From Candidatus Heimdallarchaeum endolithica (GTDB lineage Archaea; Asgardarchaeota; Heimdallarchaeia; Heimdallarchaeales; Heimdallarchaeaceae), in assembly GCA_021513715.1 (NCBI GenBank), contig CP084167.1, positions 128,001 to 192,000 of the forward strand: a stretch of 64,000 bases of DNA, written 5' to 3'. Positions within the stretch are counted from its first letter, which is position 1; every line of letters starts with the position of its first letter. The translations under genes and the position numbers were made by a program. The notes under the pieces are model-generated. The model was given only the letters and a program-made list of their open reading frames with translations, made no database searches and was not told the origin of the DNA. Below are positions 4,594 to 33,766 of this stretch, piece after piece.

Positions 4594-5388
4594 TTAAACT
4601 TTTTCTCTTTTCTTTCCAACAAAAGTTATTATAATCTGTAATATCAATATTATGACTGTTCGTATCATTCCTGAATATTCTATAACTTCACCTATTTTTT
4701 CGATACCAGGATACAATACTATGATTATAAATCCACCTAAATTTATTCCTCCGTGGTAAAAGGTTGGCCACCACACATTGTTCATCTCTTTTCTGAACCA
4801 GTTAATTACAAAACGTGATAAGATTATCCCTATGATACTAAGAGTGAACATCAACGGTGTATATGTAAAATATTTAACTCCCCAAAGATAAAAAGGAACA
4901 TGCCAGACAGCCCATACTAAACCTATAATCAAGTTCTTTACTTCTTCTCTCATTTTTAAGTTTGAATAAAGCCATCCTGCCCAAGCTATTTCTTCAAAAA
5001 AAGCTTGTATTAGAATTGAGACAGGTAATACAATAAGTGTGATTATGATTTCTAAGTTTATTTCTACTAAAGGTAAAGAATACTTGAAGATCGCAAACAA
5101 AAGTAAATATACAGAACCTATTAAAGCTGCTAAAATAATTAGTAGCAAAGATTTCAAATCAAATTTGACATCAACTGTAACACCTATATTTTCTAGTTTC
5201 TTATTGACTACTCTAGCAAAAACTAAACTCCAAATTAGTGTCCCTGCTAGATAATAAGACCCAATCCAAGTAGAAGGGACCGAAAAAAGATCAAGTAGAA
5301 AACCACCTAACCAATTCCAAATTAGCAAAATGGCTACAAAAGAAATTGGATTAAAGAATGACTTAACTTTTGATTTTTCTTCACTCAT
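4594..5388 (-). CDS. CPBP (Abi/Rce1-like) intramembrane metalloprotease
   Basis: EEIAWAG, WAVWH and H-G-G-IN motifs; multiple TM helices. Confidence 0.88.
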   Translation of the reverse strand: MSEEKSKVKSFFNPISFVAILLIWNWLGGFLLDLFSVPSTWIGSYYLAGTLIWSLVFARVVNKKLENIGVTVDVKFDLKSLLLIILAALIGSVYLLLFAIFKYSLPLVEINLEIIITLIVLPVSILIQAFFEEIAWAGWLYSNLKMREEVKNLIIGLVWAVWHVPFYLWGVKYFTYTPLMFTLSIIGIILSRFVINWFRKEMNNVWWPTFYHGGINLGGFIIIVLYPGIEKIGEVIEYSGMIRTVIILILQIIITFVGKKREKV

Positions 5389-5389
5389 G

Positions 5390-5640
5390 ATTTACTTTTT
5401 GCGAAGTTTGTCGAACTTAGTCTTTCAAGAAAAAAACAAAGAAAGAGAATTGTTAGTTTCTTGAGAACTTAATCCTAACATACAATGAAAGAAGAAGGAT
5501 TAAGGCAGACGTCATACACGAATCGGGGGAATCATAAAGAAGAGAAGATGTTCTCTTCACTCCACGAGAGACAAAAAAGAAAGAATTATCCCTAAAATAG
5601 AGAAATTATCTTTCTTTTTGTCTACTGGGACTGCAACCAA
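5390..5640 (-). ncRNA. Putative omegaRNA scaffold of the TnpB element
   Basis: Lies between the tnpB stop and the element end. Four stem-loops: 5425-5432/5457-5464, 5468-5476/5496-5504, 5539-5546/5551-5558, 5569-5584/5609-5623. Confidence 0.55.
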
Positions 5641-7083
5641 TGGCTGAGTCCTCGGCAAACAGTATAATGCGTAAGACTAAACTTTTGACCAGTAAAGTAA
5701 TCAGTAATAGTTGTAACACGGGGACGAAAAAGATGACTAAGGAACTTACGAGCAATATTTCTAGCCCCTGTTAAATCAGAGTGGTAAGTATAGTTACAAA
5801 AGGGACAGTGTATTAATCCTCTGACGGGACGAGAAACTTCTTTTCCACAACGGGAACAATGAGAAGATGTTCCTCTTTCGTCTATTATAAGAATGCGGTG
5901 AGATTCAAAACCTCTTAATATCAATGCTCGACGGAGAAGAGAAAGAACTAAAGAAAAATTCCACTGGTGAAGTTTTCTGCGAAAATAACGAGTACTTTTA
6001 CCTTTCCCTTTTTCTTTTCCTTTTCTAACATTTTTGGGGTAACCTACGACGACGAAAAGGTCATACATTTGAGCATAGGTCACTATCGTCCGCACAACGT
6101 CGTTTATAAATTGGTGAATATAGGACCGTTTAACGTTTCTATACCTTCTTCTGAGAAGACCGAGAAAACGGTAAATTTAGTGTTTTTTACCCGACTGGTC
6201 ATTTAGAGCTGCTTTCCTCTGAAGACGGGAAAACTTGAGTTTATATCTGTGATTGATTCTATTCCACTGTTTGGTATGCCAGAATTTTATTTCTTTGCTT
6301 GTTAACTTCTTTTTGGGAGTTAGTAACACTCCTGTAGCAGGAATGTTTATCCCTAGATCTATCCCCAGCACAGCTGGGGGAAGAGAAGAAAAACTTTCTT
6401 TTTCAGGAGGATAAAAAGAAGAAGGAGGAAGAACTTCTAATTGAAAATACACCCACCACTCACTTGTAGAACGTTTATATCTCAGTTCTAAACTTTTTAT
6501 TTGTCCTTTCTTCAATTCTTTTTGATGGAAAGTGCTCATCTCTAAAGGTAACCATAATCGTTGATGATACCTTGTCTTTCTTTTCCACGTGTCTAATGAG
6601 TCTCTTATTCCTACCCACCAACGAGAAATGGAGTTATTTTTCTCTTTAGGTAAATTAGTAAGAATAAATCTTTTTTTATTGATTAGTTGTCTTCTGGGTC
6701 TCTTTTTTGGAGGACGAGTGGCTTCAGGGTCTATATCCTTGCTCGTACAGTTGTACTGCTATATCTCTACACTCTTGAAACTCATCGTGAGAACAATATG
6801 GAAACATCTTTTTAAGGTCATGAGGAACAGTTGTTCTTCTCTCTTCTACTTTTTTTAGCCTTGATGTTGTTAATGTTAGTTCATCTAGTTTTCCTCTATG
6901 TACTCTTATTTCTCCTTTCTTTGTTTTCATACACAGTCTTCTTCTGTTGTGATGTATAATTTTTACATATTTTTCTATTATCCTTGTGTCTCTCCCTGTT
7001 ATTCTCCTTAATCTTTCCTTTTTTCTCCTCGTCAAAACTTCATTTTTTATTTTTACTTTCAAAGTTTTGACTATCTTCTCCAT
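5622..7083 (-). pseudogene. tnpB: TnpB-family RNA-guided nuclease, disrupted (frameshift near 6740, in-frame TAA at 6177-6179)
   Basis: RuvC-I LGIDLG, VVVGYP, IDERGTSSHCSRC, CPFC zinc finger, RuvC-III HSDLTGARNI; N-terminal KTLKVKI. Confidence 0.9.
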
Positions 7084-32600: not shown

Positions 32601-33463
32601 GAATAAACACTAAGTTCACTAGTACTAATGTACAGTCCATCATTAATAAAAACATTACCAGTAAGAGTAGCATTAGAAGAAGACCCCATGATTATTCCAT
32701 CCCCGTTATTGCTTGTTATTGTATTACCAGTAAGAGTAGCAGAATCAGAATAGTGCAAGTTTATTCCATCATCTTTATTGCTTGTTATTGTATTACCAGT
32801 AAGAGTAGCAGAATCAGAATAGTGCAAGTTTATTCCATCATCTTTATTGCTTGTTATTGTATTACCAGTAAGAGTAGCAGAATCAGAATCCAACAATTTT
32901 ATTCCAGACCAGTTATTGTCTGTTATAATATTACCAGTAAGAGTAGCAGAAGAAGAAGACCGCAAGTATATTCCATATTCCGTATTGTTTGTTATAGTAT
33001 TATCAGTAAGAGTAGCAGAATCAGAATAATACAAATATATTCCATTACGGTTATTTGTTATAGTATTGTTGATGATTTTTGCTGTATTGTGGGCAACATG
33101 TGAAATAAAAACGCCATAGTCACTAGCATCTATGTAACAATTGCGTATAATAAAATATTTTGTAGTGAGGTGGATATAAATACCATAAGATGCATCAGTT
33201 GTAATGTTGTATCCTTCAATAATATAGGGATCTGTTTCTGTTCCTGAACCTGGGAAAGCACTGAAATCACTATCTGACGATATTTCTATTGTTTCGTGTT
33301 CACTAAGGGATAAGCTGACATCTCTAATGTTGCTAATCGAAGAGTTCACTTTAGATTGAAAAAGGAATTCTTCGTTTTTATCCATTTTAGTTTCATTGGT
33401 ATTTAATAATAATATTACCACTATCAAGCCCAACAGAATTTTTTTATTTCTTATTTTAATCAT
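26642..33463 (-). CDS. Giant surface protein: NosD/right-handed beta-helix repeats, Ca-binding DxDxDG (TSP3-like) repeats, TM, cytoplasmic GF repeats, coiled coil and PCI-like tail
   Basis: Signal peptide, [18 protein letters not shown]..ATITGNxITNN repeats, [15 protein letters not shown] repeats, [20 protein letters not shown]. Confidence 0.9.
27831..28079. repeat. Intragenic 69-bp tandem repeat (~3.6 copies)
   Basis: Units start at 27831, 27900, 27969 and 28038. Confidence 0.9.
29678..30061. repeat. Intragenic 69-bp tandem repeat (~5.5 near-identical copies)
   Basis: ACCATCAGAGTCAGTGTCAGAATCTAAAGGG.. at 29678, 29747, 29816, 29885, 29954 and 30023. Confidence 0.92.
30830..32740. repeat. 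Three near-identical copies of a >200-bp beta-helix module
   Basis: [39 protein letters not shown] occurs three times (~30830-31050, ~31500-31870, ~32380-32740). Confidence 0.9.
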
Positions 33464-33577
33464 AAAAAAACCTTCTTCTCAAATAACTAGTGCTAACTCC
33501 ACATAGATGAATTACACTTTTTGCTTATTTGAATTAAATTAAAGGATGTTTAATAAAGTTTTTCCAGTATTAAGAAA

Positions 33578-33766
33578 ATAGTGAATAGTTTTCATACCAC
33601 CCCCTAGATAAAAAGGTACTAAGCGGAGGACAGTCAAGACTCTGATGTGAGAGAAGGAAATTATAATAAACATGAAGCAAACAATAACAGGGCCAGATAT
33701 TTTGTCGGAAGAAAATTTAATCAACGGGAATATCACTTTAAAAAAAAACTAAAAACTAGACATTAC
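33578..33766 (-). mobile_element. MITE-like IS6 deletion derivative
   Basis: Degenerate IRs ATAGTGAATAGTTTT / AAAACTAGACATTAC; shares TTTTCTTCCGACAAAA with the 13.8 kb left end and YYNF..SHQSL with the transposase 3' end. Confidence 0.75.

Follow-up and report, generated by a model that had tools for sequence, protein, structure and literature searches.

In this study we show that mobile elements of the archaeon Candidatus Heimdallarchaeum endolithica recombined their ends with nearby CAT(G) sites, inverting or deleting the adjacent DNA, and that the far joint of such an exchange is scar-free. The elements are solo tnpB elements and miniature inverted-repeat transposable elements (MITEs), which have one style of end in common, built around a 2-bp AT core. 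Our starting point was a 64-kb stretch of the H. endolithica genome (genome positions 128001-192000, here called the window), for which an initial annotation had proposed that rearrangement junctions converge on CATG. The genome is a single contig of 3,326,783 bp with 30.8% GC. For comparison we used the sister genome of Ca. Heimdallarchaeum aukensis PM71 (CP084166; ~88% identity), of which 2.4 Mb (78%) were aligned against the H. endolithica genome. Both assemblies combine Nanopore and Illumina reads, and multiple displacement amplification (MDA) was applied for H. aukensis only (PMC8813620). Window coordinates are positions in the 64-kb stretch and genome coordinates are whole-contig positions; MITE385 and similar MITE names are working labels of this analysis.

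Element ends and target sites

The TnpB element of the window (5386..7227, minus strand) is non-autonomous, with imperfect terminal inverted repeats (TIRs) of ~31 bp and no transposase gene. Its AT cores lie at 5387-5388 (right end) and 7225-7226 (left end). Its tnpB is a frameshifted copy (5628..7083, minus strand) of the RuvC-II-rearranged type and belongs to the aCas1-associated Asgard clade. At the two insertion junctions (5386/7224) H. aukensis has an empty site with a single CATG. At least 13 full-length relatives of the element are present in the H. endolithica genome, and its style of end is shared by solo tnpB elements from three or more unrelated clades and by MITEs of 385 bp and 353 bp. 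Each end is an imperfect inverted repeat of 24-31 bp, co-varying between subfamilies and genera, with a T-tract motif ~6-18 bp from the AT core. Copies of the MITEs are up to 99.7% identical, which shows that they moved recently. The reverse of the situation at 5386/7224 is seen at an empty AT core in the window (15543..15544), where H. aukensis holds a 375-bp MITE of the same end family with the target G-AT-A.

AT was found at the boundary of 154 of the 156 ends in the two genomes. At left ends the host base that precedes it is C 43 times out of 50, and G in all five cases for the IS607-clade tnpB, whereas the position before the target C-A-T is mixed (C20 A14 T13 G8), so that just C-A-T is conserved. 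At the right end the host base following AT is G (52) or A (35), less often T (9) or C (3), and the last base that the element itself contributes before AT is C or G, depending on the family. In single copies one end can be at CATG while the opposite end is at CATA, CATC or CATT, and GATG is used as a target too. The target is thus C-AT-(G>A), or G-AT for one clade, and since these other targets are used and the inner G and C are supplied by the element, only AT is duplicated; CATG on both sides is the commonest case. The idea that CATG is a piggyBac-like target therefore held as far as the preference for CAT(G) goes, but its 4-bp duplication did not.

This arrangement of ends recurs in a second genus; a third genus has it as well, with G-AT. 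In the second genus the left end repeats the right end in inverted orientation but lacks a hairpin partner: as read by eye from alignments, with no folding, there is a hairpin at the right end and no clear partner arm at the left. The MITE left end gave no match in the viral contigs searched, and a metagenome scan with the IS607-clade tnpB returned distant relatives only (at most 52% over short stretches).

Inversions and deletions at the AT core

Eleven local inversions can be read as exchanges at the AT core. In eight of them an element end sits at one junction, and the far junction, where readable, is a scar-free CAT-type joint. Six lie in H. endolithica (genome 1138527-1138726, 692026-695346, 1600763-1601383, 1839399-1840196, 2922376-2922701 and 699065-699143) and two in H. 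aukensis (genome 761902-763985 and 2753219-2753393). Left and right element ends both take part, and at H. endolithica genome 1600763-1601761 a single MITE is flanked at the right end by an inversion and at the left end by a deletion of 151 bp. Because element ends occupy at most ~1.7% of CATG sites, their presence at these junctions is not due to chance. In outline this bears out the earlier proposal that whatever enzyme moves the TIR-TnpB family acts at CAT(G) and also inverts or deletes the adjacent DNA.

The other three inversions retain no element. One of 634 bp (H. endolithica genome 487054-487691) breaks a 746-aa Cu-ATPase that is intact in H. aukensis; one of 530 bp (H. aukensis genome 2488890-2489420) breaks a 590-aa gene that is intact in H. 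endolithica; the third is inside an IS6-like copy of the window (13973-14523). The initial annotation had the elements leave by scarless excision, and these three inversions, from which we infer such excision, are consistent with that part of the claim. Four element-free deletions in H. endolithica likewise join CATG to CATG, CATA or GATG. The same reaction could also account for MITEs that have been shortened to an internal CATG and for tnpB copies that break off at CAT. We considered the possibility that the element-free junctions are pseudo-ends; it was rejected by a weight matrix, in which they score at percentiles 0.26-0.88.

Enrichment of CATG at breakpoints

The enrichment test counted 4-mers at alignment ends away from mobile elements, with no sites picked by hand. 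CATG is the leading 4-mer at these breakpoints after words made of A and T only. In the pooled 2.4 Mb it was found at 22 ends versus 4.8 expected (p ~7e-9, with ends that are partly dependent, up to four coming from one inversion). It was seen at 16 ends versus 3.6 expected in 1.56 Mb and at 6 versus 1.2 in a 0.8-Mb hold-out; the two hold-out sets by themselves gave 9 versus 2.1 (p ~3e-4). These figures come from a looser end filter; the strict sharp-end filter, which retained just 16 ends, gave 3 versus 0.14. A start-codon artefact was ruled out as the source of the excess, as 1 of 15 sites is start-codon-like. The enrichment thus stands in a comparison free of selection and in the hold-outs, though more narrowly than had been claimed. 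CATG is also rarer than the one per 350-400 bp estimated before, with one per 526 bp in the H. endolithica genome (observed/expected 0.81); the most depleted palindromes there are CCGG, GATC, CATG and GTAC.

The effect is strong in local inversions and weak in deletions. By our own count CATG is involved in ~4 of 26 clean deletions versus 2% expected (p ~0.002), and ~11 of 25 truncation points within repeats fall at CAT/ATG. Three or four local inversions are without a sharp CAT-type joint, and the inversions of 100-300 kb terminate in copies of IS6-like or 1-kb insertion sequences (IS), not at CATG sites. To speak of a genome-scrambling system, as the initial annotation did, is too strong in view of these deletions and large inversions. 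CATG-linked rearrangement is a side reaction of mobile elements and not general scrambling: it is dominant for small inversions and minor for deletions.

Rearranged junctions within the window

All motifs listed in the initial annotation are present at the positions given there, with CATA at 13973 and AATG at 17827, and five of the junction sets (5386/7224, 11097/11280, 13973, 17959 and 20412) turned out to be real. Three of the rearrangements (11087-11100, 11097-11283 and 13973-14523) lie in a 3.8-kb composite insertion (10810..14575) that is bounded by two IS6-like ends and missing from H. aukensis, where the alignment has a 3776-bp gap with CTTT microhomology. The microhomology suspected near 11087 marks a real internal IS6 deletion, at ACCAT (11087..11100), after which the IS6 CATG at 11097 is joined to foreign DNA. 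This is an internal tnpB fragment (11097..11283, minus strand; 89-91% identity to two 505-aa tnpB copies), each joint of which has CATG: at 11097 the IS6 CATG meets the tnpB piece, and at 11280 the CATG of the donor tnpB is joined at ATG. The known donors have CATG at the 11280 end and none at the 11097 end. The IS6 inversion proposed at 13973 is a 549-bp, element-free exchange of CATG with CATC (13973..14523): intact copies have CATG and CATC at opposite ends; the joints read CATA at 13973 and CATC at the partner junction 14521.

The sdhA pseudogene carries two further events, both on the plus strand. At 17827..17830 a 591-bp in-frame deletion has AT in register on both partners, and its AATG is explicable entirely from the right-hand partner. 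At 17959..17962 the gene is truncated at a conserved CATG: all five sdhA homologues compared carry CATG at the His-Gly position where the window copy ends. The pseudogene is contained in 1.8 kb that the sister lacks (17268-19071), flanked by a 13-bp direct repeat, in which two small genes resemble, by eye, a nucleotidyltransferase/HEPN toxin-antitoxin pair. In the hydrolase gene, 524 bp between two successive CATG sites were lost without an element (20412..20415, plus strand); the sister gene is intact (305 aa). Around it (window 20157-22320), the riboflavin genes that lie upstream of the hydrolase in H. aukensis (genome 242260-244620) are missing and another 1.7-kb stretch differs.

Two of the proposed junctions fared differently. 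The inversion suggested at 23366/23632 is not one: 23363-23910 is collinear with another IS and has hence arisen from it by internal deletion, and no CATG is present at 23632 in a relative that shares this deletion. The terminal repeat AGCATGTCC of that other IS, which has ~40 copies, includes the CATG at 23366. At 33671 the remnant is too diverged for the break to be placed. Both positions belong to a 10.5-kb segment not found in the sister genome (23363-33903), which has ends of a 1-kb IS family as its bounds and encodes a 2273-aa protein with 69-bp tandem repeats. Within it, CATG is found at a possible 1.1-kb deletion relative to paralogues (24085-24088), and the right partner in the paralogue is without CATG.

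TnpB proteins and the aCas1 link

Intact copies of tnpB encode RuvC-II-rearranged proteins with all three catalytic residues (motifs GIDLG, VVGYP, DERGTS and HSDLTG). Homologues of the window TnpB are almost confined to Asgard archaea. In Thorarchaeota they terminate in GTTCACTCA and stand head to head with a protein of 1400-1900 aa, whose N-terminal domain has a Cas1 fold (Z 13.3, root-mean-square deviation 3.9, 178 aligned; the top 12 matches are Cas1 or casposase). This giant protein adjoins the main tnpB clade in 19 Asgard loci, mostly of Thorarchaeota, and the right-end motif ACTCA(C/T) is common to our elements and these relatives. The window clade is the already known aCas1-linked group, for which aCas1 (Cas1H-Asgard) has been proposed as the transposase (PMC10691335). 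The giant proteins have no Pfam match, a PD-(D/E)XK-like motif, 5-7 copies per genome and 138 relatives in a large library. For one tnpB clade that uses the ends described here, relatives in another Asgard family lie beside an IS607 TnpA. In another genus a gene for a HerA/DUF87-type ATPase is directly upstream of the same tnpB clade at five loci.

Search for the enzyme

None of the repeat families with these ends encodes a DDE transposase; no autonomous partner with matching ends was found. DDE_Tnp_4 (PF13359) was absent from five genomes, other DDE families not having been searched one by one; those that are present here have different ends and 4-16-bp duplications. aCas1 was found in 0 of 30 genomes of the family, and a 110-sequence profile had no match in H. 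endolithica. The only Y1 tnpA of H. endolithica is interrupted by a MITE; H. aukensis has none, nor do 27 of 31 family genomes, while control genomes matched. It belongs to the sole IS605 element (genome 923878-925985), into which a 385-bp MITE is inserted at G-AT-G. H. aukensis has no tyrosine recombinase, and no IS607-type TnpA was found in H. endolithica or in 78% of H. aukensis.

The only PF00239 genes that the two genomes have are those for two solo serine recombinases of 240 and 249 aa (H. endolithica genome 316731-317450 and 405351-406097). Of 30 family genomes, 28 have them, whereas a search of 225 other Asgard genomes at E 1e-25 found none. Their catalytic motifs are intact, and they have no zinc-ribbon cysteines or cysteine cluster. 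In fold they match Bxb1 best (E 1.7e-9, 284 columns) and are also like IS607 TnpA, while a phmmer search against the sequences of the PDB gave no match. In one paralogue the catalytic serine has been lost in two genera. Half of the family genomes, including the complete H. aukensis genome, show no tyrosine recombinase, and the solo recombinases might replace XerA in chromosome dimer resolution. As the enzyme that moves the elements, one or both of these chromosomal recombinases acting in trans are our leading candidate, a tentative choice. An IS607-type TnpA that passes through the population is ranked behind them, and we hold it to be rather doubtful; ~12 other family genomes carry extra PF00239 genes of IS607-TnpA size, so that such a transient partner may exist.

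Proposed mechanism and alternatives

We think it probable that the elements recombine at their AT core in the manner of IS607, with the enzyme supplied in trans, trans action being the least certain part of this proposal. A serine-type recombinase would pair two AT-core sites and exchange both strands, so that the elements would move by conservative double-strand recombination at AT, as IS607 does at GG. Recombination between the two ends would yield excision, and that between the resulting circle and a target would yield insertion. An exchange of one end with a nearby CAT(G) would give an adjacent inversion or deletion, and later exact excision could leave the element-free joints. Since AT is self-complementary, unlike GG, exchange would be possible in both orientations, so that inversions could arise alongside deletions. 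One exchange between an end junction and a nearby target would predict a reciprocal inversion with a single copy of the element next to it, as observed. TnpB, with a predicted target-adjacent motif (TAM) ending in CAT, may offset the loss by excision, and a near-fixed C on the left side only would be expected from such a TAM. IS607 itself offers a precedent for the 2-bp core, the scarless donor joints and the matching TAM (PMC6188088, PMC4058570, 10.1101/2023.11.20.567912). A further possible scenario, which we put forward with some reserve, starts from the two compact serine recombinases that Heimdallarchaeaceae maintain as chromosomal core genes. Several unrelated TnpB clades and MITEs would have lost the transposases they once had (aCas1, IS607 TnpA) and taken on att-like ends that these host enzymes recognise. 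Because the AT core is palindromic, the enzymes would continually generate scar-free inversions and deletions at CATG.

Several observations weigh against the IS607-like proposal or against its candidate enzymes. No element was found to contain or adjoin an enzyme gene, and no circle or excision product was observed. The solo recombinases adjoin tnpB in 0 of 30 loci, which makes their link to the elements circumstantial, and their co-distribution with the elements comes from related genomes and is not independent evidence. Some of their paralogues are found in contexts like those of integrated elements, and they may be ordinary site-specific integrases. The extra resolvase genes of ~12 family genomes also speak against them. 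The element-free joints are no more like element ends than random CATG sites are, and the right end (..CTCAT) is similar to Y1-type ends and also to the GTTCACTCA motif linked to aCas1. Finally, IS607 is without TIRs (PMC6188088), which the elements described here have.

Among the rival explanations, the one that deserves most attention is that aCas1 or an unrecognised DDE-type transposase acts in trans, with a 2-bp AT duplication, one-ended events and exact excision. The link of the main tnpB clade to the giant Cas1-fold protein in 19 Asgard loci and the common right-end motif speak for it, and so do TIRs, which are typical of DDE-linked TnpBs (PMC10691335). Yet aCas1 and DDE_Tnp_4 are missing from the genomes searched, the local DDE families differ in ends and duplications, and one element copy beside a reciprocal inversion would be hard to reconcile with one-strand transfer; we thus regard this explanation as unlikely. 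Less likely still is that these are solo elements of the IS200/IS605 type, mobilised by a Y1 (HUH) TnpA in trans with cleavage at nCAT on the left and TCAT on the right, the AT duplication and the repeats being by-products. Right ends in TCAT/TCAC are Y1-like, and the asymmetry of the target, with a nearly fixed C before AT and a variable base after it, fits Y1. Excision by Y1 is scarless (10.1101/2023.11.20.567912). On the other hand, Y1 tnpA is broken in H. endolithica and absent from H. aukensis and most of the family, just three target bases are conserved, the left end of the second genus has no hairpin partner, and single-strand chemistry would not readily produce reciprocal inversions.

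The initial annotation had also suggested a CATG endonuclease (CviAII/NlaIII-like) with religation of the fragments; the elements would then exploit or merely share the site. Several element-free events do link two exact CATG sites, CATG occurs at 0.81 of expectation, and methyltransferases of unassigned specificity are present in the genome. The fit is nevertheless poor, and we give this idea little credence: at least five events have CATC, CATA or GATG partners, eight of the eleven inversions abut an element end, and an internal CATG inside the 634-bp inversion was left uncut. The one clearly assignable methyltransferase is Dam-like, and NlaIII/IceA-like endonucleases (PF05315) gave no match, but none in control genomes either. 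The Dam-like enzyme stands beside a second methyltransferase (H. endolithica genome 2810748-2812622), and a 458-aa methyltransferase of unassigned specificity is encoded at genome 1072045-1073421. MDA can generate inverted chimeras. Most deletions are without CATG and the H. aukensis DNA was MDA-amplified (PMC8813620), so that chance microhomologies or chimeras of library or assembly have to be considered as well. We find them very improbable, because the enrichment recurs in the hold-outs, the events are present in two independently assembled genomes (most of them in the genome obtained without MDA), and mutations have since arisen in several joints. In addition, the accessible part of the published library methods names no restriction enzyme and reports that the H. 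endolithica-type genome was polished with 88x Illumina coverage (PMC8813620).

Significance and comparison with known systems

The elements represent a TnpB end system beyond the IS605, IS607 and DDE-linked classes, with inverted ends around a 2-bp palindromic core that unrelated clades use. The comparison of two complete Asgard genomes also records intermediates of gene-breaking inversions. Which enzyme moves the solo TnpBs of Asgard archaea can now be tested directly with a 385-bp substrate and two candidate genes. Should the host recombinases be responsible, they would be very small (~245 aa), multi-targeting enzymes of interest as tools, and so might be the associated TnpBs with their short predicted TAM (CAT). 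The system would also be a source of scar-free rearrangements in an Asgard lineage close to eukaryotes. No description of such a system was found in a literature search that covered few subscription journals.

Several known systems have features in common with the elements. Like piggyBac (TTAA), they have a palindromic preferred target and scar-free joints, but the duplication is 2 bp and not 4, and no matching DDE enzyme was found. They differ from IS200/IS605 by having no tetra- or pentanucleotide left target, just the conserved C-A-T. Tn4451 and Tn5397 are transposons of the TndX/TnpX type. Like the multi-targeting large serine recombinases (PMC10083194), they resemble the system described here: target choice around the core dinucleotide is relaxed, the inverted ends are att-like and excision is exact (inferred in our case). 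However, their enzymes are large and element-encoded, whereas our candidates are chromosomal core genes of 240-249 aa without zinc-ribbon cysteines. Solo TnpB elements and MITEs of the IS1341 type (PMC10691335) are likewise mobile without a transposase in cis and have ends common to other elements, but they have a recognisable autonomous partner with matching ends, and none was found here. With the aCas1-associated TnpBs (Cas1H-Asgard, PMC10691335) the elements share the tnpB clade, including the Thorarchaeota relatives with GTTCACTCA and the giant Cas1-fold neighbour. In contrast to these, our elements are solo and mobile, aCas1 was not found, and the AT-core ends are common to unrelated tnpB clades and MITEs.

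The closest likeness is to IS607. In both systems a 2-bp core is common to the ends and the target, the target preference on the left side can double as TAM, tnpB and the guide RNA are at the right end, and one tnpB clade here has IS607-linked relatives. The differences are that the core here is the self-complementary AT and that of IS607 is GG (PMC6188088), that adjacent inversions are frequent here, and that no TnpA of the helix-turn-helix serine type was found in any element, in H. endolithica or in 78% of H. aukensis. In conclusion, the system probably works like IS607, yet it fails two defining features of that family.

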